From positions 1 through 38,443 of IMG/VR virus record IMGVR_UViG_3300033067_001359: DNA of 38,443 nucleotides. The stretch is one strand, 5' to 3'. How positions within the stretch are numbered: position 1 is the first letter of the stretch; each line of letters opens with the position of its first letter. The notes beneath the pieces were generated by a model that saw nothing but the letters and a program-made list of their open reading frames with translations, was not told the origin of the DNA and searched no databases. The stretch is from a virus. Lineage: Duplodnaviria; Caudoviricetes. Below, piece after piece: positions 5,620 to 38,249 of this stretch. A program made the translations under genes and the position numbers.

Positions 5620-5625
5620 TTACGC

Positions 5626-6486
5626 ATGAGATACACCATTAAAGACTTCAAAAAGGACTTCCCCGACGACAAGGCTTGCTTGGCACATATCTTCAAGAAG
5701 CGTTATCCTGACGGTTTGAAATGCCCGAAGTGCGGAAAGTCGTCGTTCCATCCAGTTGCTAACCGCCGAGCCTATGCTTGCGCTTGCGGCTTTCAGACTT
5801 ATCCGACTGAAGGTACGATCTTTCACAAAAGCCCCACCCCGCTTACTATGTGGTTTCACGCCATTTTCCTGATTAGCCAAAGCAAGAACGGGGTCGCCGC
5901 CAAAGAACTCGAACGGCACCTTGGCGTTACCTACAAATGTGCGTGGAGAATCAATAAACAGATTCGGATGCTTATGAGACAATCCCCCGATCCGCTGGAC
6001 GGGAAGGAGATCATCGAACTGGACGAAACCTACATTGGCGGCGTTCGCCGTGGGAAACGTGGGCGTGGTGCCGCTGGTAAGACGCCCGTGTTCGGGGCGG
6101 TTGAGCGTAAAGGCAAGATCAAAACTCGCACCGTCAAGAACGTCAAGATGGTAACGCTGATGCCCTTGGTTCAGGCTATGGTTCCCCCGAACTCTGTCAT
6201 TACGACCGATGAATCCAACAGTTACAACAAGGTCCGGTCTATTGGGCACCTTCACGAAACCGTCCAGCACGGGAAGGGTCAATACGTCCAGGGCGACGTT
6301 CACACTAACACGATTGAGAGTTTCTGGTCGCAGTTCAAACGGTCGGTTCATGGGACTTTCCACGCTGTTTCGCCAAAGTATTTGCAGACTTACTTGGACG
6401 AGTTTTCTTTCCGCTACAACCATCGTGGCGCTTTGATTCCCGCCGTGATGTTTTCACGGGTTGGGAAGCCAGCGAAAGCAGCCTGA
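5626..6486 (+). CDS. IS1595-family (ISXO2-like) DDE transposase
   Basis: CPKCG Zn ribbon; IELDETYIGG, ITTDE, HTNTIESFWSQFKR, YLDEFSFRYN. Confidence 0.95.
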   Translation: MRYTIKDFKKDFPDDKACLAHIFKKRYPDGLKCPKCGKSSFHPVANRRAYACACGFQTYPTEGTIFHKSPTPLTMWFHAIFLISQSKNGVAAKELERHLGVTYKCAWRINKQIRMLMRQSPDPLDGKEIIELDETYIGGVRRGKRGRGAAGKTPVFGAVERKGKIKTRTVKNVKMVTLMPLVQAMVPPNSVITTDESNSYNKVRSIGHLHETVQHGKGQYVQGDVHTNTIESFWSQFKRSVHGTFHAVSPKYLQTYLDEFSFRYNHRGALIPAVMFSRVGKPAKAA

Positions 6487-6501: not shown

Positions 6502-7209
6502 TCACGGATTGAGCCATATAACCTCCTTGCTTTGTTTAGCTCCCTTCTTGCCCTCCAAAGCCTTCACAGTTCGGAAGGGTGAGAACGGAAGCCAGGAAGC
6601 GCCATCCTGTTCACAGACCATCACTTGCCCCTGTCTGGCTCGGCACCACTTGGCGAGGTTGTCAAAATCAATTTTATTGAAGCGATACCGAACCCCCGAC
6701 ACCTGATATGGTGGGTCAACAAACCAAGAAGCATCTTGGTTTTCAATTTGCTCATAGGACTTGTTTTCAATCTTCCAATGCCGAATTTGACCAAGCTGAC
6801 TGGCAATTCTGCCACGGATTACTTCGCCCCAAAACGAATTTGGTCGCCAACCATCACGCATCCATTTCCCTGGTATATTACAGGGAGATACATTCCCTTT
6901 GTTTAACCAGAATCCGATCAACCACTTTGCTTCTTGGCACAGAGGCATTTCTCTTACGTCCGTTATCTCTAGTGGAAGGGCTAAAATTTCGCTTTCCTTA
7001 ACATGAATAAGATAGTCCCAGACGCTACAGATGATGGGATCACGGTCAAACAAAAGCACGTTCTTTTGTGGGTAATGAAGTGAATACCCCGCCGAGCCAG
7101 CGAAAGGCTCAATAAGTGTTTTGTGCTGAGGCTGAGGGTAATGTTTAGCAATGCGCCACTTCCCGCCAAAATATGTAAAAAACAATTCAAGTCTTTTCAT
7201 TTCATACAT
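6502..7209 (-). CDS. DNA adenine methyltransferase (Dam/D12-like), IS passenger
   Basis: YFGGK, EPFAGSA (SAM binding), FVDPPY catalytic motif. Confidence 0.9.
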   Translation of the reverse strand: MYEMKRLELFFTYFGGKWRIAKHYPQPQHKTLIEPFAGSAGYSLHYPQKNVLLFDRDPIICSVWDYLIHVKESEILALPLEITDVREMPLCQEAKWLIGFWLNKGNVSPCNIPGKWMRDGWRPNSFWGEVIRGRIASQLGQIRHWKIENKSYEQIENQDASWFVDPPYQVSGVRYRFNKIDFDNLAKWCRARQGQVMVCEQDGASWLPFSPFRTVKALEGKKGAKQSKEVIWLNP

Positions 7210-13219: not shown

Positions 13220-13731
13220 ACTTAACCTCACTTTTTACTTTTTAGACAATAAGCGGGTAAGGGTAAGGGTCTTTTGTTCAAGACTCCTACCGGCCCGCCG
13301 TCTCCGGGCCTGGTCCGCTGACTTAGTTTGCTTGGGTTTCGTTGTCTCCAGGTTCGACCGTTGGGACGTTCCGAGCATCCCTGCCCGATCCCCATAAAAT
13401 CTTGAACTCCAGAGAAAGTGTTTCAAAGAACTGGCCGGGTATCCCTTTTGTTCCCCGTTGCCGTTCCCATGAGACAACTTCTTCCCAAACTTTTCTGTGA
13501 TCCGTCTTCCCTTGCGGTGCCTTCTAAGAAACACTTCACCGCGTTGTCCGAAAACCACAGGACAGTACTCCCAGAGCTTTTTTTTAAGGAAGTGAAGCCA
13601 GTCGCCTAGGAAACCAAAAAACTTCCGCCTTGACACAAAACCGGCTCCGGATGAAGCTTGCTTTGTGATTTCAGCACTCACAGGTTCCCCCGAAAGCTTA
13701 CAAAAGTAAACCGTAGGGGGACGAATTTTCT

Positions 13732-13944
13732 GTGACCCACCAAGTCATCCCTCCAAAAGACCCCATTGAACTGATCAGATTAGCCAAATTCCTCATGGAC
13801 CGTTGGATTCGTGACGGTATCGCGCCCAATTGGGACGGCGAAAAGCAGCTGTTGGACAAAATGGTCGGCATAGACCAGGTTGGCATCTTGCTTGATGAGA
13901 TCGACCGGCTACGTGCGCAGTTGGCCGCCAATTTTACTTCTTAG
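13732..13944 (+). CDS. hypothetical protein
   Basis: 70 aa, AGGGGG RBS, first rightward gene. Confidence 0.6.
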   Translation: MTHQVIPPKDPIELIRLAKFLMDRWIRDGIAPNWDGEKQLLDKMVGIDQVGILLDEIDRLRAQLAANFTS

Positions 13945-13971
13945 CTTTTCCAAGTCACACTGGTTAGACCA

Positions 13972-14523
13972 GTGGCAAAGAAAAAAGCCGATCAACCGTT
14001 AGGACTCTACTTAGCCGACGAGAAAAAGGCTGAGATACAGGCAACCATCACGGACGCACGCTCAGAGCGCGTATACAGTTCCACCAAATCCAGAGACGCC
14101 ACCAAGGCCGGCGGCAAGCATCAGCGTTCCTTTCGCCATTCGCTGGCGCATGATCGCGAGGACGCGATGATTGACGCCATCGACATGCGACGGAACATGG
14201 AAAAGCTGGTGCCGTTGCTGGATAAGTTTGGCGAGGGGAAGATTGACGTTCAAGGCTTCCTCAACGGTGTCTCAGGTCACATGACGCGCGAGATGCTGAC
14301 GATTGCCATGAGCGGTGACAGTGAGAAGAATCGGTTGGACGCGCTAAAGCATTTATTAGGCATTGCAGGGCACTCTCCAACGCAAAAGCATGAGATCGGG
14401 CGCATTGACCCGTCAACGCCAAAGGAAGCGCTGCTGGCGATTATACGCGGTTCCAAGCGGGATCTAGAGGATGAGGGTATCGAGGTAACTGGTGATGAGC
14501 CAGATAAACCTGAAGGAGCTTGA
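13972..14523 (+). CDS. probable terminase small subunit
   Basis: Directly upstream of TerL; helical, SEKNRLDALKHLL pattern. Confidence 0.6.
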   Translation: MAKKKADQPLGLYLADEKKAEIQATITDARSERVYSSTKSRDATKAGGKHQRSFRHSLAHDREDAMIDAIDMRRNMEKLVPLLDKFGEGKIDVQGFLNGVSGHMTREMLTIAMSGDSEKNRLDALKHLLGIAGHSPTQKHEIGRIDPSTPKEALLAIIRGSKRDLEDEGIEVTGDEPDKPEGA

Positions 14524-16924
14524 GAAGCTGTCGCAGGAAGATCTTCTGCTGATAGCATCACAGGTAACGGATCTAAAGCGAGCCAGGCGGCAGAAGAAGT
14601 TAGACTTCTACCTGCGAAACGCGCATCCAAGCCAGATTCAATTCCACAAGGCAACGCAGCGGATACGGTACATATTCGCTGGGAACAGGTGTCTTCGTGG
14701 CGATCAGCGAGTCATCACGATTGATGGCCCGCTCGCCATTTCCCAAATCACTCGTCAGACAAAGTATCTTTCGCGTCGTCCGGATGGATCGTTTGGTTAC
14801 TCTCTAGGTAGCGTTCCATTCCAGAAAACTGCGGATGATCTTTTCCTAGTTCGTCACGAGCACGGAGAATTTGTCGCTTCCGGATCTCACCGAGTTTTTT
14901 GCGCTGATTATACGTATCGATCTGTTCGGGATCTGGATTGTGAAACTTTCCTTTTTCATACAACCGAGAAAGCAGTTTCTTCTTCCCCTCTTCAGACCAA
15001 TTGGGGCATTTCCCTTTCAGGGTTGCGGAGAGATGTTCTGCATTTGATTGAAAAAGGCGCAAATTTTCTGGTGCGTTGTTTAGACGGTTCCCGTCGATGT
15101 GATCAACAACCTCGTGCGGCAGAAGATAGCGACCAAGCTTTTGCTCCATCACTAAGCGATGTTCAAGGATCAGGCCGCGAAGTCTTTTCTTCCCAGGTTT
15201 CCGACAATAGGGGTGCCCAAGGGGAGCTGTCACAAGGACATAACCATCCCGATCAACCTTCCTTCCGCCCTTCCAATTCTTTGAAAGTTCTCCCGGAGGA
15301 GCCTTCTTACTTCGTGGAAGACCCCATCGTTCCTGAATCCCACGAACATAGCGCGGCGTGCAGCCAAGCATCTCCGCAATCTCTCGGCTTGTTAGTTTCC
15401 CGTCTGAAATCTCCTCAATCTTCTGCTCAAGAACAGGATCTTTTCTTTTCCCCATGGCGACTGGCCCCCTCTGTTTCCAGGTTAATTGAGATTAGAAAAA
15501 TCGCAACGGAGCCAGTTTGGGATGTAACGATTCAAGCCACCCATAACTACGTAACCGAAGATGGAACGGTGCATGAGAACTCCGGCAAATCGACAGCCGG
15601 CATGGCCGAACTCATCTGGCGCTGCATGGGCACGCACCCATTCCAAAAGGTAAAGATACCGATCAAAAGTTGCGTCATCCTGATCGACTTTGAAAACGCC
15701 TGTAAATCAGTCTTTGAGCCGAAGCTTACGGAATGGGCACCTGAGGGTTCCATCAAAAAGCTTGAGCGCCACCAGGGCGGCGCCATCAAACGCATCTATT
15801 GGACCAGTGGCTCGATCACGGATGTCTATTCGCATGACCAGGCGATCTCCGTCTTTGAAGGCAGCGATTACGACTTGGCTTGGTTTGACGAGCCGCCGCC
15901 GAAGATGATCTTCAACGCTGTCTGGCGCGGGATGACTGACCGTGGCGGCATGATGTATCTGACAGGCACTCCGCTAACTGCACCCTGGCTCTTTGATGAA
16001 TGGAAGAAAGTCACCGAGCAAAAGGACCCGCTCCGGTGGGCGATTCAGTTTCACTCAAAAGAAAACGCATCAAACCTTGGCGAGGGAAACCGTGAGCTTG
16101 GCTTAAAGCGGCTTGAGGAGTTTGCCTCGATGCTGTCGCCGGAAGAACGTGCGGCTCGGTTAGAAGGTGGCTTCATCCAGATGCAGGGCCTCATCTTCAA
16201 AACCTGGAACCGTGGCACGCATGTGATTCGCCAGTTCCCGATCCCGGTGCAGTGGGAGATTATCGAGTCAATTGACCCGCACCCGGCAAAACCGTGGGCG
16301 ATAACGTGGACCGCGAAAGCATCCAATGGCTCAAAGATCCTACTCTCTAGTCTCTATGCGGACGGGACAATAGACGACATCGCAACTTCAATCGTGATGG
16401 GTCGCGAGCAGCTGGAGATAAAAGATGGTTTGCGGCCGCGAATTGCAAAGACGCTGATTGATAACGCATCCAGTGTCCCGCTCTGGCAGCGATCAAATAC
16501 TGACCCGACGAGTCGTCGATTGTCTGTCCGCGAGGAGCTGGAGAACATGATCGGGCCACGAGGTGCTGGCGGCCCGCGAGTAACCTGTGCACCAAAAAAC
16601 GTTGCCGGAAAGATTGATCTTTTCAAGCGATGGCTTACTGTAAAGGAGAGGCGGGGTCAGGTTAGGGCTGACTTCTACGTTTTCGATAACGAGGATAACG
16701 AGGGATTTATCCGCGAAATTGAAATGTATCAGTGGGCAAAGTTCAAGGCGCGTGATCGCCAAGATGAAGCTCGCGGCAGTCCGGTAAAGAAACATGACGA
16801 TCTAATAGACTCAGTCTTACAGGTCGCACTCACGGAGGGGGAAGAGCCGGAGAGTCCAGTGGAGGGTAGCCTCGACATGACTCAAGGGTTCCAGGGATAT
16901 GGACAAAGAGCAGCAAGTACCTAA
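14492..16924 (+). CDS. terL: terminase large subunit, intein-containing
   Basis: Spliced Walker A AGNR/SGKS, Walker B AWFDE, TGTP coupling motif, nuclease IDPH...HDDLID. Confidence 0.93.
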   Translation: MMSQINLKELEKLSQEDLLLIASQVTDLKRARRQKKLDFYLRNAHPSQIQFHKATQRIRYIFAGNRCLRGDQRVITIDGPLAISQITRQTKYLSRRPDGSFGYSLGSVPFQKTADDLFLVRHEHGEFVASGSHRVFCADYTYRSVRDLDCETFLFHTTEKAVSSSPLQTNWGISLSGLRRDVLHLIEKGANFLVRCLDGSRRCDQQPRAAEDSDQAFAPSLSDVQGSGREVFSSQVSDNRGAQGELSQGHNHPDQPSFRPSNSLKVLPEEPSYFVEDPIVPESHEHSAACSQASPQSLGLLVSRLKSPQSSAQEQDLFFSPWRLAPSVSRLIEIRKIATEPVWDVTIQATHNYVTEDGTVHENSGKSTAGMAELIWRCMGTHPFQKVKIPIKSCVILIDFENACKSVFEPKLTEWAPEGSIKKLERHQGGAIKRIYWTSGSITDVYSHDQAISVFEGSDYDLAWFDEPPPKMIFNAVWRGMTDRGGMMYLTGTPLTAPWLFDEWKKVTEQKDPLRWAIQFHSKENASNLGEGNRELGLKRLEEFASMLSPEERAARLEGGFIQMQGLIFKTWNRGTHVIRQFPIPVQWEIIESIDPHPAKPWAITWTAKASNGSKILLSSLYADGTIDDIATSIVMGREQLEIKDGLRPRIAKTLIDNASSVPLWQRSNTDPTSRRLSVREELENMIGPRGAGGPRVTCAPKNVAGKIDLFKRWLTVKERRGQVRADFYVFDNEDNEGFIREIEMYQWAKFKARDRQDEARGSPVKKHDDLIDSVLQVALTEGEEPESPVEGSLDMTQGFQGYGQRAAST
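14690..15580 (+). mobile_element. intein (297 aa) in TerL Walker A
   Basis: Starts CLRGDQRV; block B ASGSHRVF; block F VWDVTIQATHNY; ends VHEN followed by Ser+1. Confidence 0.9.
14748..15455 (-). CDS. HTH + HNH homing endonuclease encoded antisense inside the intein
   Basis: SREIAEMLGCT HTH, NWKGG, EHRLVME...VVDHIDGNRLNNAPENL; AGAGGGGG RBS 9 nt upstream of ATG. Confidence 0.9.
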   Translation of the reverse strand: MGKRKDPVLEQKIEEISDGKLTSREIAEMLGCTPRYVRGIQERWGLPRSKKAPPGELSKNWKGGRKVDRDGYVLVTAPLGHPYCRKPGKKRLRGLILEHRLVMEQKLGRYLLPHEVVDHIDGNRLNNAPENLRLFQSNAEHLSATLKGKCPNWSEEGKKKLLSRLYEKGKFHNPDPEQIDTYNQRKKLGEIRKRQILRARDELGKDHPQFSGMERYLESNQTIHPDDAKDTLSDE

Positions 16925-32554: not shown

Positions 32555-34323
32555 TGGCTGACGTGAATGATGATCCTTTCGCGGCACTTGCTCCGCAGAC
32601 GGTTTCAAAGGAAGAGCTGCAAGCCACGGGTGCCTTACCAAAGGAAACCAAGCCTCTCAGCCTGACGGATCGTCTGGCGCTCACTATCATCTTTGACACG
32701 CAGCCAAAGAAACGTGCGGCCTTTCTCAATAAGCTTGGCTATGAGATGGACCCGCAGAATGACAATCGTTACCGGCCGATTGGCTCAAAGGAGAAATTTC
32801 TAAGGGAAATTGATCCGCTCGGTGGCGAGGAAACAAGCAGCACGAAAGCATATTTCAAGGAGCTTGCAGCAGATGCACTAGAGGCAGGAGCGGTTGGAGT
32901 GCAGGGAGCTGGCGAATTGGCAGGCTTTGCTGCTGGTGGCCCGGCAGGGAGAGCCTTAGCTTACAACGTAATTGAGTCCGCTAAAGACACCTTGGCTCCG
33001 CTGTTCTTGGACAAAGACATTCCTACTGATTACGCGCTTCGCGCCGCACAGACTGCTTATGGAGCCATTCTGCCTGAAGCCATGGCAGGTGGATCGAAGC
33101 TCGCAACCGATAAGCTTATCAAGCCTGCTCTTGAGGGAATCTCAAACGGCGTACGCAAGCTCTACAAGTTTGGCGGCGGCAACATCTCAGACACTGTCTG
33201 GCAGGGGTTACAAAAAAACTGGAAGCTACTTTCTGACGAGAAGGCCTTGAAGAGTGCCGGCGATGCAATTGATTCTACGGTTGAGAAGCTATACGGAATG
33301 GAAGCCGGAGATAAGGTCATTCCAAAGAAGATTGAACCCGGTAGTCTTTTCTCAGACGCTCTTAATGCCCTAGAGGGGCCGCGTCGTGCTGAGGCTTCAA
33401 AGCTATCCGCAATCGGACAGGCTTCCATTTCAAAAGACGAGGCACTTGCCCCGTTGCTTGCAGCTAAGGCTCGCATCGAGCAAAAGCCGAGATTGTCTGA
33501 TACGGTCGATGAGCCTGGACTGGCGTGGATCAACAAAGAAATCGGTAAACTTCAAAAGTCGGGCGCTCAAAGCTATACCTTTGGAGAGGCTGATGACATT
33601 GTGAAGTCTCTTCAGACTGACGCATATGACAGCGACGAAGCATGGCGCACTCAAATCGTTCAGCCGCTCGTTGAAGACATCAATGGGCTGCTTAAAGCAA
33701 AAGCCGAGTCTTTAGGCTCACCTTATGCTCAAATTAAGCAACAGGAATCCCAGATCTTTAAAGCCTTTCAAAAGTCCCGCAAGGCTCTCAACAAGGAAAC
33801 CGCTCGTAGCTTAGTTGTCGGCGGCCTGCCGACTGGTGCGGACCGTGCTGATCTCAACACGAAAGCTTTGAACGAAGCCGTGGACGCTATCTCTGCCACC
33901 GTGATACCTGGATTTAAGGACCAGCTGCAAAATGATCAGATCGCTCACCAGGTCTTCAAGGTCATGGAGTCAAGTTCCCGGCCGAAGGGCTCTTTTGGCG
34001 TGCTATCGACAGCCGGTGGCTTGGGAGCTGGCACCTATGCAGCGTTAAATGCTACTCCACTGTCGCCAGTAGCCGCTCCGGCAGCCGCCGCAACCTCAGC
34101 TCTAACCGCAGCCGCTCTCGTGCCTCGCATCGGGTTGCCTGTGGCTGGAGCAGCGGATCAGTTGGCTAGTCGCTTGAGCACGGCAGCAGCTCCTGAGGCG
34201 GCGTCAGAAGGCGTAGCAGCGTTGCTCCGGCAATCGCTAGCACAACCTGTTGCAGCGGAGCTGGCCGCGCCACAGAACGTGGCACCGGCCCCGGTTGAAG
34301 ATGACCCGTTTGCTGGACTCTAA
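32554..34323 (+). CDS. large internal virion/ejection protein
   Basis: 589 aa Ala/Gly-rich helical; last gene of the operon. Confidence 0.65.
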   Translation: MADVNDDPFAALAPQTVSKEELQATGALPKETKPLSLTDRLALTIIFDTQPKKRAAFLNKLGYEMDPQNDNRYRPIGSKEKFLREIDPLGGEETSSTKAYFKELAADALEAGAVGVQGAGELAGFAAGGPAGRALAYNVIESAKDTLAPLFLDKDIPTDYALRAAQTAYGAILPEAMAGGSKLATDKLIKPALEGISNGVRKLYKFGGGNISDTVWQGLQKNWKLLSDEKALKSAGDAIDSTVEKLYGMEAGDKVIPKKIEPGSLFSDALNALEGPRRAEASKLSAIGQASISKDEALAPLLAAKARIEQKPRLSDTVDEPGLAWINKEIGKLQKSGAQSYTFGEADDIVKSLQTDAYDSDEAWRTQIVQPLVEDINGLLKAKAESLGSPYAQIKQQESQIFKAFQKSRKALNKETARSLVVGGLPTGADRADLNTKALNEAVDAISATVIPGFKDQLQNDQIAHQVFKVMESSSRPKGSFGVLSTAGGLGAGTYAALNATPLSPVAAPAAAATSALTAAALVPRIGLPVAGAADQLASRLSTAAAPEAASEGVAALLRQSLAQPVAAELAAPQNVAPAPVEDDPFAGL

Positions 34324-35333
34324 AGGTTATTGAGCACAGTCCGCCACTTATCTGCTGCATGCGAACTTAACCGTTCGCTCAGCACATAGTCACGCGCCCG
34401 GCTTCCCATCTCTTCCATCTTCTCTGGATGGTTAGCGGCCCACGTCAGCTGCTCCTCCCACGAGTTGAAGTCAGAGTTGTCTTCAGCAAACAGCATCACT
34501 TGGCGATGAGCATGCTGAATGAAATCGGATCTGGGTGAGGCAATAAGCGGGATGCCGTGCGGTGCCATCTCGAGTAACTTCAAATCGCTTTTGGCTTCAT
34601 TGAACGGATTCTTGTTTAAGCCCACCAAGCAAACTGAGAAGGGATAGGCGGCCGCCACTCCTGGATAGCTTAAGTAATCAACGTAGCCTGACTCAAAGAC
34701 CACTTGCGTGCCAAATTCACGATACAGATCATCCGGACAGATGCCGTGGAAGTAGCTCTTAGCGTCAGCATTTGACCGTAGGAACTGCTTTAAGCCAGCC
34801 TTGAAAGTGTCTTGATCGGCACGATGTTGCTGGCCACCAGTCCACCCTGCAATGAAGCAGTTTTTATGCGGCTTATTTAACGGCTTATAGGCCTTGTAGA
34901 CCCGTTCACTGATGGAGTTTTCAATCACCGTTTGACGTGGATTATGGGCTGCGTAACGAGTGGCCAGAAACTTTGTCGAGAAGACGCAGTGGTCTACGGC
35001 TTGAATGAGGAAGGCGATCTTTTGCGAGCTGAAGTGCCCGTAGGCTTCATGGTCTAGAGGCAAATCAGAAAGCAAATCGTCGAGATCCACAATCGTCTTG
35101 CAGCCGTAATGGAACTTGGCACGTTCAGCTAGATACAGGAACTCGTCACTGGTGGGATGAACAAAGACTAAAGCATCCAGGTAAAAAGCATCAGAGTGAC
35201 GCAGATCGCCAATGTCAAAGAATCTAAAATCAAATTCATCCCGGAGATGGATGAATGGTAAATGCACTCGCTGATAAACAAGTCCATGGTTTGAGTTAGG
35301 GGAGACGACGCCAATCTTAAGCTTTTTGCTCAT
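34320..35333 (-). CDS. glycosyltransferase, GT-B fold (GT4-like)
   Basis: VDLDD, GWTGG, NPFNEAKSDLKLLE, GIPLIAS. Confidence 0.85.
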   Translation of the reverse strand: MSKKLKIGVVSPNSNHGLVYQRVHLPFIHLRDEFDFRFFDIGDLRHSDAFYLDALVFVHPTSDEFLYLAERAKFHYGCKTIVDLDDLLSDLPLDHEAYGHFSSQKIAFLIQAVDHCVFSTKFLATRYAAHNPRQTVIENSISERVYKAYKPLNKPHKNCFIAGWTGGQQHRADQDTFKAGLKQFLRSNADAKSYFHGICPDDLYREFGTQVVFESGYVDYLSYPGVAAAYPFSVCLVGLNKNPFNEAKSDLKLLEMAPHGIPLIASPRSDFIQHAHRQVMLFAEDNSDFNSWEEQLTWAANHPEKMEEMGSRARDYVLSERLSSHAADKWRTVLNNL

Positions 35334-35583
35334 AATCCTCTCGACGGATACCATGCTTCTTCATCTTTTCACAGAAGGTTGTGCGGTTGATGCCAAGGAT
35401 ATTGGCACCGCGTTGCGGGCTTCCTTCACCTTCAATGAGCGTATTCTCAACTAAGGCGGCCTCGAGCAGGTCAAATGCCTGCTTTATCGTTAGGCCATTC
35501 TTTAGCAGCGCTGTTCTCAGCAACTTGTAACAAGTATCTAGCTCTGAGGAGGGTAAGGAATGTTTCAATTTCAACTGCGGCAT
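35317..35583 (-). CDS. stand-alone Fis-family HTH protein
   Basis: EAALVENTL...GANILGINRTTFCEKMKKHGI; start uncertain. Confidence 0.75.
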   Translation of the reverse strand: MPQLKLKHSLPSSELDTCYKLLRTALLKNGLTIKQAFDLLEAALVENTLIEGEGSPQRGANILGINRTTFCEKMKKHGIRREDYEQKA

Positions 35584-35869
35584 AGAGTTTCCCTCGGTTT
35601 CTGGTGAAGGATAGAACTCCAGGATAGCTCCCATGTCCAGCGGCCTGCCTTAGTGCGTCCCAAATATTGAGCTTTTCTTGATTCTTAGATTCAAAGCAAA
35701 AAGGAAGCGCCGAGCGGGCAGCGGGAGAAAGCCAAAGGTCCTCTCCAACCACGCCACTCGGCACAACCTTAATGTCATCCGGGCTGAGTTCCGGGAAACG
35801 CGAAAGCAAAAGGTCCCTTAGAGCAGCGCACGCTCTCCTCCCCTTGGCTTTCGCACTAGATGCTCGCAT
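35471..35869 (-). CDS. PD-(D/E)XK Holliday junction resolvase-like nuclease
   Basis: SAKAKGR...GEDL...FESKNQEKLNIW. Confidence 0.75.
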   Translation of the reverse strand: MRASSAKAKGRRACAALRDLLLSRFPELSPDDIKVVPSGVVGEDLWLSPAARSALPFCFESKNQEKLNIWDALRQAAGHGSYPGVLSFTRNRGKLYAAVEIETFLTLLRARYLLQVAENSAAKEWPNDKAGI

Positions 35870-35895
35870 CCCCCGATGCCCCCTCCCAGGATAAG

Positions 35896-36318
35896 TTAAC
35901 CGTTCTTGAGTGCCAGAAACGCGGCCAGAGGCTTTTCGGGATCACGTTGAATGGTGAAAGTCGAAACCTCTTTGCCACCCTTCTTCTGGGTATAGCTTGA
36001 AACTCTGGTGAACCGGCAAAAGTATCCCAGCATTTTCATCTTTTCTTTGCCGTCAGCCAGATGCTCAGGCTTTGCGGACTTGTCGCCAGTCTTTGCAGCG
36101 AGGATGTTCGTTGCATCGTATTTTGCCGTGCCGCCAGTTAGGATCTTTACTGCCTTACCCGTTTCAGCATCGTAGCCCGTGAAATTTACGGTCGGCGTGT
36201 TGAACTGCTTATTCATATCGGCCACCACGTCTTCAACGTAGAAGTCTTTATGTTGACCGGGCTCCAGCGAGTTCAGAAGGAAGCTGTCGTCTTGGTTTGA
36301 AAGTGTCTCAAGTGCCAT
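35896..36318 (-). CDS. hypothetical protein, possibly OB-fold ssDNA-binding
   Basis: AAGGAG RBS; beta-rich; near the RecE-like gene. Confidence 0.55.
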   Translation of the reverse strand: MALETLSNQDDSFLLNSLEPGQHKDFYVEDVVADMNKQFNTPTVNFTGYDAETGKAVKILTGGTAKYDATNILAAKTGDKSAKPEHLADGKEKMKMLGYFCRFTRVSSYTQKKGGKEVSTFTIQRDPEKPLAAFLALKNG

Positions 36319-36328
36319 CTCAGTCTCC

Positions 36329-36598
36329 TTACGCAATGTCAGTGGGGTCAACGGGGTACTGCTGAACAATGGCGCTGTTCGCACTCATCATCACAAAGCT
36401 CAATTGAGTAAGTGCAGTGGCCTTTTCGCGGGACTCAGGGCAGAGATCCCCGATCAGGAACGCAAGTTCACGGACCTTTTTGCGGATCGTGGTCATGTTC
36501 GACTTCCCGGTAGCGTCCGGCGAATGGAATGCAAATCTAGACAGAATTTCTGCCTGTTGTTTCGTCATTCCCGGTTCATTGGTTCCAAGTTCACTCAT
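36329..36598 (-). CDS. Acb2/Tad1-like helical hairpin protein
   Basis: RFAFHSP...IR...ELA...CPESREKATALTQL...MSANSAI. Confidence 0.6.
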   Translation of the reverse strand: MSELGTNEPGMTKQQAEILSRFAFHSPDATGKSNMTTIRKKVRELAFLIGDLCPESREKATALTQLSFVMMSANSAIVQQYPVDPTDIA

Positions 36599-37448
36599 AT
36601 TTTACCTCTCTTTTTTCTTGTTCTTGTTTCTCTGCAAGCGCCCGCTGATGATACCAGCTAGACACTCCACATTCTCCTGAATGAAGCGGAAGAGCCGGAT
36701 ACTCTTTGCGCTCCTGACACTGTTTCACGGCCTTCAGTGCCTGCTTATATTCAAAGCGTCCAAGGTCTAGATCTTCCTGCTTTGCCGAATGCAGGGTCAT
36801 AAGAAAGGGACGCTCGTGACTGACCGCAAGCCACTCCCATCTGGTCCACTTCTTACCAGTTAGTTTTGATAGGCCATCGAGATAATAGGCAGCCTGTCTG
36901 TGATACTTCCAAAGGGTCACCGAGTGGGCAAAGTCTTTCGGGTCTTTCGTGGTCTTGAGATCCAGTACCCAGGCATCTTCCATGAATGCCATGTCAGCGC
37001 GGGCTTTGCACTGCACCCCAGTCTCTTCATCAATCCAGAAAAACGAAACCTCAGCTTTACCTTTCCCAAGCAAGTCGCCGTAGTTCTGATGCACGAGATC
37101 TGAACAATCAGCGTAGCGATCATAGTCTTCTGCCGGGAGGAAAATCTTATTTGGATATTCACTCTCAAGCCTAGCTTTAGTTTCTTTGCCGACCTTAGTT
37201 CTAAGATCAAGCTCTGGGAGTCTGCCGTATTCTTGCAGGAAAAGATTTGGCTCTAGCACTGCCGAGTGAACGGCGGTTCCTTCTTTCTGAGCTTTCCCGC
37301 TGGGAGTTTTATTTCCCTCCAGGATGCGGTATTGATAGAGCCTTGGGGCGCTTAGAAATAACGACAGTTCAGAGTTCGACATCCAATCCGTATGTGAACG
37401 GTAGACGTCGTTTGGCATGTTTTCATAAATCCCCGGCTTAATCCCCAT
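36591..37448 (-). CDS. RecE/exonuclease VIII-like PD-(D/E)XK nuclease (DUF3799-like)
   Basis: GTAVHSAVLEP, EVSFFW, CKARAD, DLKTT, YHRQAAYY. Confidence 0.88.
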   Translation of the reverse strand: MGIKPGIYENMPNDVYRSHTDWMSNSELSLFLSAPRLYQYRILEGNKTPSGKAQKEGTAVHSAVLEPNLFLQEYGRLPELDLRTKVGKETKARLESEYPNKIFLPAEDYDRYADCSDLVHQNYGDLLGKGKAEVSFFWIDEETGVQCKARADMAFMEDAWVLDLKTTKDPKDFAHSVTLWKYHRQAAYYLDGLSKLTGKKWTRWEWLAVSHERPFLMTLHSAKQEDLDLGRFEYKQALKAVKQCQERKEYPALPLHSGECGVSSWYHQRALAEKQEQEKREVKYE

Positions 37449-37463
37449 AGAGGAGTAGTTTAG

Positions 37464-38249
37464 GTGAGTTCCGAGAAAACGCAAATGAAGCTGGGCGTCA
37501 TCATCCCCAACTATTCAAAGTCCCCGAAAGACTTGGACATGCTAAAGCGCGCCATTTCATCAGTCCGTTTGCATGAGCCTCGCATGCCGATTCTGATTGT
37601 AGACGACGCATCGCCCTGGCCGCCTCGTCATGTGACTTTCTCCGAGATGTTGATACCCGTGTGGCATAGGAAGGTAAACGGTGGCTATTCGGCTGCCATC
37701 AATTCGGGCCTCTCCATTCTAAGGTCAGCTGGCTTCACGCATGTGCTGACGATGAATTCAGATGTGGAAGTGACAACACCGTTTCGGCTAACGCTAGAGG
37801 ATGCCTTCAAGCAGGCTGACATCATCGGTGGCCGGCTCCTGTATCCGACAGGTCGCATTCAGGCGGCAGGCTTTGAGATTGACGACGAGGGACGCCCCCT
37901 TGAGATCGCAAAAGGAAAAATCTTCCATGATGCAGCCGAGACTCACATGCCTCGCTACTGCTTCGGGGTCACAGGTGCCCTACAAGCCTTCTCACTGGCG
38001 ATTGGTAATTACTCGGAAGCCTATGGCCTTGGCTTTGAAGACGTAGAGTTTTGTGCCAGAGCCTGGTCCACTGGTCGCAAGGTTGCCTATATCCCGACCA
38101 TTCAAGGGGTGCATGGCGAATCAGAAACCCGCGGCAAGGAACCAAGCGCCAGAGAGATGGCTTCTATGCGCCAGTGGATGGAAGTGGACTCAAGGCTCCA
38201 TGACCTGCCACGGATTCGCCAGCGAATTGCGGCACTAAACAGGGTCTAG
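37464..38249 (+). CDS. glycosyltransferase family 2
   Basis: VIIPNY, IVDDAS, NGGYSAAINSG, NSD, GFEDVEFC. Confidence 0.9.
   Translation: MSSEKTQMKLGVIIPNYSKSPKDLDMLKRAISSVRLHEPRMPILIVDDASPWPPRHVTFSEMLIPVWHRKVNGGYSAAINSGLSILRSAGFTHVLTMNSDVEVTTPFRLTLEDAFKQADIIGGRLLYPTGRIQAAGFEIDDEGRPLEIAKGKIFHDAAETHMPRYCFGVTGALQAFSLAIGNYSEAYGLGFEDVEFCARAWSTGRKVAYIPTIQGVHGESETRGKEPSAREMASMRQWMEVDSRLHDLPRIRQRIAALNRV

Follow-up and report, generated by a model that had tools for sequence, protein, structure and literature searches.

How can one stretch of DNA inside a terminase gene encode a protein on each of its strands, and which of the two is selected where? The question is raised by a viral contig (Duplodnaviria; Caudoviricetes), IMG/VR record IMGVR_UViG_3300033067_001359, which was analysed over its full 38,443 nucleotides (nt; hereafter the window). 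From the letters alone, an earlier note had proposed that a 297-amino-acid (aa) intein splits the Walker A motif of the terminase protein TerL, and that a separate 235-aa HTH-HNH endonuclease gene lies on the opposite strand at 14748-15455. The intein is borne out by the open reading frame (ORF), a Hint-fold model and invariant residues, and the HNH gene by an HNH_3 match above the Pfam cut-off, with weak HTH matches. We consider it likely that the element is a mobile TerL intein that splices by the class 1 route, and that its separately expressed HNH protein nicks or cuts empty alleles and so drives homing.

An insert in terL read on both strands

The locus is made up of the following features.

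14492-16924, plus strand: TerL ORF, 810 aa (Terminase_6N, E 7e-11; phrog_2)
14492..14689, plus strand: TerL N-extein, 66 aa, ending with the first half of Walker A (from the ORF and relatives P0124-P0242)
14690..15580, plus strand: class-1-type intein, 297 aa, with Cys1, block B His67, block F Asp278/His285 and a terminal H-E-N297 (alignment and model)
14690..14962, plus strand: N-terminal Hint half, residues 1-91, of which 20-91 are doubly read, the antisense being the C-terminal part of the HNH protein (model and divergence)
14963..15460, plus strand: linker, residues 92-257, predicted to be disordered; opposite the codons of the HTH and HNH core (model and divergence)
15461..15580, plus strand: C-terminal Hint half, blocks F and G (model)
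15581..16924, plus strand: TerL C-extein, starting at Ser+1 of S-G-K-S (family matches)
14748..15455, minus strand: HNH endonuclease gene, 235 aa, with HTH (3-50), I-HmuI-like HNH core (64-149) and helical C-terminal part (about 181-230) (Pfam, PHROGs and model)

The predicted model of the intein contains a Hint fold composed of residues 1-91 and 258-297, with a predicted local distance difference test score (pLDDT) of about 97, around a disordered middle. Foldseek returned the solved DnaE and DnaB inteins as the best matches to this model (E 2e-6). C1, H67, D278 and N297 are invariant in 58 aligned members of the intein family. The end residues of a class 1 intein (C1, N297 and Ser+1) are present, the insert is in frame at a conserved site of which empty alleles exist, and excising 14690-15580 in silico rejoins Walker A as A-G-N-R-S-G-K-S. 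The insert at 14690-15580 is an intein, by sequence and model, and is predicted to splice. In canonical inteins the nuclease lies in frame between blocks B and F; the window's intein has a different layout. Its linker is 17% Ser and 8% Pro, and neither Pfam nor PHROGs detected a nuclease family in the intein frame. The description of the centre as featureless, Ser/Pro-rich sequence stands for residues 92-257 but fails for residues 20-91 of the overlap, which are folded splicing domain.

The antisense ORF matched HNH_3 with an E of 2e-11 (43.8 bits against a Pfam cut-off of 24.8) and phrog_10730 with an E of 2e-37 over residues 11-220. Its predicted model (mean pLDDT 87.7) has a nuclease core preceded by an HTH and followed by C-terminal helices. 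D118, H119, N127, N131 and H141 are invariant across 121 HNH sequences. The top Foldseek match of the core was I-HmuI (PDB 1u3e), at a weak E of 0.027 and a sequence E of 0.44; VIA gave a Z of 5.7 and a root-mean-square deviation of 3.1 over 74 residues. A phmmer search of the PDB with the HNH protein gave no match.

The two frames overlap over intein residues 20-256, running through block B. Codon position 1 lies opposite position 1, and each wobble base lies opposite position 2 of the other strand. Both the register and the extension into block B are as the earlier note had read them. The codon of the catalytic intein His67 shares bases with HNH G189 and E190. In this register, 14 control genes had a mean of 12.3 stops per 235 codons, and their longest open run was 106 codons. 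Synonymous shuffling gave no opposite-strand stop in 8 of 20,000 cases when the HNH frame was shuffled and in 14 of 20,000 when the intein frame was shuffled. Phe followed by Ile, Met, Thr, Asn or Lys always creates an opposite-strand stop here. This pair was expected 93.9 times in the 121 HNH proteins and was never seen, with the reversed pair occurring 82 times; the proteins are kin and hence not 121 independent trials. Avoidance of plus-frame stops in homologues, a prediction of the earlier note, was found at 76 of the 80 viral loci described below, where the frame is open.

Could one of the frames be a chance or shadow ORF, or the insert an assembly artefact? Codon-aligned shadow ORFs do occur elsewhere in the window, as at 5620-6423(-) against 5626-6486(+). 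Against this stand the known domains in both frames, the rarity of stop-free shuffles (8/20,000), the register kept at 76/80 loci and a single contig. The latter, 1,506 nt long and from the source-like sequencing run X1, crosses the entire insert with 0 differences, so that the insert is not an assembly join. We regard this explanation as scarcely credible.

Selection on the two frames

Divergence was compared in 11 pairs of the long subfamily, whose HNH tail is present as in the window, and in 9 pairs of the short subfamily, with each element used once. In the linker, the HNH wobble position diverges more than the intein wobble position in 20/20 pairs (0.42 versus 0.16 in the long subfamily). 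At the amino-acid level, the linker of the long subfamily diverges by 0.26 when read as HNH and by 0.50 when read as intein. The linker thus evolves for the HNH frame, and conservation of that frame, which the earlier note had expected, is seen as linker divergence concentrated at the HNH wobble position. At the intein ends outside the overlap the pattern is reversed, and the intein wobble position diverges more.

A third pattern is found where the HNH tail lies opposite the splicing domain. In the long subfamily, intein residues 24-90 show differences of 0.16, 0.22 and 0.18 in the three base classes, and amino-acid divergence there is 0.28 in the intein frame versus 0.27 in the HNH frame. For the N-terminal part outside the overlap in the short subfamily, the base classes differ at 0.16, 0.09 and 0.38. 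Intein wobble divergence is 0.18 in the overlap versus 0.38 in the short subfamily and also in blocks F/G (Fisher p 1e-15 and 5e-13, with sites treated as independent). In 36/38 long elements and 9/68 short ones, no stop interrupts the HNH frame across intein residues 24-70. By this divergence pattern, about 65 splicing-domain codons of the window's subfamily, including that of the catalytic His67, are under selection for the protein that each strand encodes. The earlier note had proposed a dual-coding selfish element in which the nuclease gene is tolerated as a spliced-out linker; dual coding stands, but toleration understates the case for those codons.

A profile of the HNH tail matched 47 proteins among 1.84 billion representatives: 40 with an HNH core and 7 short fragments, every one of which fits membership of this family. 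The forbidden dipeptide is absent from this set, against 30.1 expected. The extra C-terminal helical part is restricted to this HNH family. The long subfamily forms one clade among the short ones, with an SH-aLRT of 95 in a quick tree (113 columns, midpoint root, many open forks; 'long' being defined by coverage of the window's protein). The ESM Atlas search with the tail gave a best score of only 0.75 and was uninformative. The family-limited profile matches and the single long clade suggest that the tail was derived within the family, and that it was overprinted on the older Hint domain.

A family of inteins and its probable movement

We infer from sequence that the element splices, is transcribed and cleaves DNA. 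The TerL precursor would splice out the 297-aa insert and restore Walker A. The HNH protein would be made from its own promoter and ribosome-binding site inside the intein's 3' end, and would nick or cut intein-free terL of co-infecting phages, whereupon recombination would copy the element. As to origin, it is likely that a free-standing HNH gene went into a mini-intein in reverse orientation, in the only register that lets synonymous choice avoid nearly every stop, and that one sub-lineage afterwards extended the HNH C-terminus over the N-terminal splicing domain.

Two putative expression signals were located on the HNH strand.

15465..15472, minus strand: Shine-Dalgarno-like AGAGGGGG, 9 nt ahead of the HNH ATG (sequence)
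15479..15506, minus strand: weak promoter-like site with 7/12 consensus letters, where many relatives match a sigma-70-like promoter strongly (position and letters)

The former corresponds to the ribosome-binding site that the earlier note had assigned to the HNH gene. Shine-Dalgarno counts (25/38 long and 36/68 short elements) have no null distribution and are not used as evidence. In dereplicated elements, the antisense of the last 50 intein codons contains sigma-70-like matches of at least 10/12 letters in 7/34 long and 22/58 short elements. The maximum in 100 synonymous shuffles was 4 for the long and 7 for the short elements; the other strand gave 0 and 1, and internal windows none. The promoter-like sites of the long subfamily lie ~73 nt from the intein 3' end. 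When 13500-16200 was scanned with the promoter consensus, 1.8 sites were expected and 3 were found, none of which lies upstream of the HNH gene. The HNH gene is oriented like the window's leftward gene block and opposes the packaging operon. It is plausible that HNH would be expressed earlier than TerL or independently of it.

Relatives of the HNH protein numbered 663 at E <= 1e-20. We fetched 175 loci, consisting of the best 80 of 233 viral loci, the best 80 of at least 349 metagenome loci and 15 genome loci. An open antisense frame with both intein halves was found at 129/175 loci (72/80 viral, 44/80 metagenome and 13/15 genome). At 8 further loci, mostly close to a contig end, the frame is open and one intein half was detected, and 4 open-frame loci (L129, L136, L144 and L156) had no detected intein half. 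The antisense frame is closed at 34 loci; at 33 of them no intein half was detected, and the HNH gene appears to be free-standing. At L073 an intein N-half is present, but the host frame is interrupted by stops, and the element is possibly decayed or split. The collections overlap, and the 133 delimited elements include 107 distinct ones.

The 33 free-standing relatives, and two mini-inteins without HNH at the same TerL site (P0125 and P0199), would fit an HNH gene that is a selfish passenger, using inteins as a safe harbour and moving alone, with the intein inherited separately. However, register and position are fixed in the 107 elements, the expression signals lie within block F and the tail is fused to splicing-domain codons. 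Intein-borne HNH cores also mostly cluster apart from free ones (3 label changes in a quick tree). A passenger of this kind is very improbable in our estimation.

Of the 99 host C-exteins, 75 were scanned, yielding 53 terminases, 1 helicase, 2 clamp loaders, 2 of another ATPase and 17 unnamed or unmatched. Non-terminase P-loop NTPase hosts are a helicase at L025 and L026, a clamp loader at L066 and L135, and an ATPase at L100 and L124. The host at L077 is possibly SMC-like, on a cut contig. The presence of the same intein family in non-terminase P-loop NTPases points to host-gene switching between Walker A sites. Insertion points cluster within or next to Walker A; a second site, three codons downstream, follows the Walker A Lys (G-K | T) instead of preceding S-G-K, and is used at L053-L055, L059-L061, L068-L071, L120, L127 and L138. 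Nine cultured phages gave matches to the HNH protein, namely PHS3 and eight members of the Ymer group. Records of Ymer, PHS3, Sabo, Taid, Setonix and Amona were confirmed to carry the element within terL, and it is also present at loci of an Enterobacter and an Acinetobacter genome. The annotation of PHS3 (L082, KX912252) gives only the HNH and a shortened terL. That of Ymer (L081, OP748252.2) gives the long ORF as a hypothetical protein and leaves the HNH gene unannotated.

Among 119 TerL relatives, 104 are empty at the window's site, 13 have an intein there and 2 are fragments. The 13 site-sharing inteins comprise 10 that match the family linker profile, the mini-inteins P0125 and P0199, and one that is LAGLIDADG-like. 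This last one, P0237, is 338 aa long and has LAGLIDADG-like motifs in frame, as judged by eye, which suggests that unrelated nuclease types compete for one site.

Alleles of the window's phage and of near-identical phages were found in sequencing runs, 7 of the 19 listed having been compared with the window. In X3, X9 and X10, from three studies, near-identical phages have an exact join across the insert, which is the empty site. Over much of the genome, X10 has 0-4 differences per 400-1,600 bases. The empty allele codes N-R-S-G-K, with different synonymous codons at Arg-1 and Ser+1. X2 and X5, both from one other study, hold identical pieces of the full element; that they represent the same intein in another host was rejected, as both also contain other pieces of this phage. 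In X4, flanks that are about 99% identical enclose an in-frame 387-nt (129-codon) insert at the same site. It shares only its first 5 and last 50 nt (15531-15580) with the window's insert, and the remaining 332 letters gave no alignment at 80%. By its size and ends it is likely to be a 129-aa mini-intein. Since only the ends are shared, X4 does not represent a simple deletion but a recent replacement of one insert by another. Record 6 of X3 likewise begins at 15531, and a 20-nt pattern from the common 3' tail matched 0 viral contigs. The coexistence of full, empty and short-insert alleles in near-identical phages indicates recent exchange.

These alleles also bear on whether HNH has been domesticated by the terminase as a cofactor of packaging. 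Terminases of cos phages have HNH partners, and at least 53 of the 75 scanned hosts are terminases. Near-identical phages nevertheless lack the HNH gene, 104/119 TerL relatives are empty, and the element is also found in a helicase and clamp loaders. We rate this idea a shade below the passenger hypothesis. The different 129-codon insert at the same site of a near-identical phage fits intein-by-intein displacement, and would suit an HNH whose main role is to interfere with rival phages or exclude their markers by cutting terL alleles, whether or not these contain an intein. Intron endonucleases are reported to act in phage competition (PMC11620839, in the part available). The patchy presence in TerL relatives and the spread over Walker A sites and non-terminase ATPases are what homing predicts. 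Interference as the main activity is unlikely, though the best placed of the alternatives; it is compatible with homing and may be an added effect.

One further feature distinguishes the alleles.

14639..14657, plus strand: cluster of 8 substitutions, 33-51 nt upstream of the insert, with three amino-acid changes (allele comparison)

These 8 bases separate both insert-bearing alleles from the empty alleles. The cluster is possibly a co-conversion tract or an altered or lost nuclease target. For a cleavage assay the earlier note had proposed an intein-less target stitched from the window's flanks; this is not the natural empty allele, which encodes Arg-1 and Ser+1 by alternative synonymous codons and departs from the window at the 8 upstream bases.

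The H-E-N ending is unique to the window in the family and is shared with P0125, the mini-intein of a related TerL. This suggests that an intein with a nuclease gene took the place of a resident mini-intein, whose tail it retained; that the replacement ran in this direction is our inference. A fuller reading would have the HNH tail arise de novo by overprinting on the splicing domain, block F carry a promoter layer, and the element spread by displacing mini-inteins, with the window's C-terminal tail borrowed from one of them. We find this combination evenly poised between right and wrong.

Several observations weigh against a homing intein under dual selection. The penultimate residue of the window's intein is Glu296, not His, with a His at 295 and the block F His285 retained; a penultimate His is usual but not obligatory in class 1 inteins. 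The H-E-N ending occurs in 1/107 elements, the window's own, versus H-H-N in 83/107. For intein residues 21-91 of the window alone, the absence of stops has a P of about 0.5 with the intein residues fixed and is not significant, so that dual selection over these residues rests on the family. The likeness of the HNH core to I-HmuI is weak by Foldseek, VIA and sequence alike, and the window's own promoter-like match is just 7/12. The profiles that scored the intein halves were partly built from the same viral loci. Finally, 62 of the 104 empty relatives of TerL, among them the closest one (79% over the C-extein), have a +1 residue other than Ser or Thr, and homing into such relatives would need co-conversion of that codon. 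Gly is the residue in 33 of the 62, possibly an escape from invasion.

Known systems and the rest of the window

The published sources compared here were available in part, and statements about them refer to those parts. The earlier note left open that the architecture might be unpublished. It is already in print for anti-sense LAGLIDADG and Vsr-like nucleases in actinobacteriophage inteins, including those of TerL, described by Gosselin, Arsenault and Gogarten (bioRxiv 10.1101/2025.01.02.630785). In their survey, non-canonical layouts are rare (63 of 784), HNH is listed in frame only and second ORFs typically lie outside the splicing domain. Like those inteins, the window's element combines a contiguous intein with an opposite-strand nuclease in a TerL host; continued homing is evidenced and invasion by a free-standing nuclease is proposed. 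In contrast to them, its nuclease is HNH_3, its family is large, with 10/13 inteins at this TerL site matching the family linker profile, and the nuclease gene of one subfamily extends over about 70 splicing-domain codons, that of the block B His among them. The window's element works like the anti-sense inteins of Gosselin et al., yet is a separate subtype.

A cyanobacterial DnaX intein contains an out-of-frame LAGLIDADG nuclease (Phillips, DeSimone and Gogarten, bioRxiv 10.64898/2026.09.14.751524, citing Gorbalenya 1998). This nuclease is a +2 ORF according to that preprint and anti-sense according to bioRxiv 10.1101/2025.01.02.630785. The DnaX intein resembles the window's in its disordered intein-frame linker, purifying selection on the nuclease frame, P-loop NTPase host, and full, mini and empty alleles together in one population. 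It differs in its LAGLIDADG nuclease, its location in a bacterial chromosome gene and an overlap that lies between the splicing halves.

The H-R-L...D-H-x-D-G-N...N-L-R core of the window's HNH aligns with I-HmuI (PDB 1u3e; PMC3428280), and like I-HmuI it is likely a nicking enzyme with separate DNA-binding domains. Enzymes of the I-HmuI type, in contrast, are borne by phage group I introns and sense-encoded (PMC3428280), and the window's HNH has an N-terminal HTH and the extra C-terminal helical part. The ShiLan element of phage methylases (PMC11855218) shares a hidden HNH gene and a stop-free host frame, and is actively homing; it differs in lying on the same strand (frame 3), in having no splicing domain and in its zinc-finger HNH.

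No published intein with an antisense HNH gene turned up in our literature search, though one may be recorded in InBase notes, in the supplements of either preprint or in subscription papers. The main text of the Ymer paper gave 0 matches for intein or HNH. Although antisense-nuclease inteins are described as rare, no other intein is as common at this TerL site as the HNH version. A survey that classified inteins by the intein frame would score such elements as decayed and so bias tests of the homing cycle. In the long subfamily, the same DNA specifies a predicted folded domain on each strand, and both are selected at once; this natural case can serve studies of how domains arise de novo and of the design of overlapping genes. 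In the Pseudoalteromonas phage PHS3, a cultured carrier with a harmless marine host, the timing of expression, nicking and competition between inteins can be tested directly.

The plus strand of the window also holds the TerS, portal, major head and tail-fibre genes, and the leftward gene block, which includes a methyltransferase, lies upstream of the packaging genes. The codon-aligned pair mentioned above consists of a 286-aa ORF matching unknown PHROGs (5626-6486, plus strand) and a 267-aa ORF (5620-6423, minus strand). For the DNA methyltransferase adjoining these ORFs (5620-6486 and 6502-7209), the best family match covers the C-terminal 100 residues only. Past the tail genes, at 34320-37484 on the minus strand, are a glycosyltransferase gene and an exonuclease VIII-like gene.

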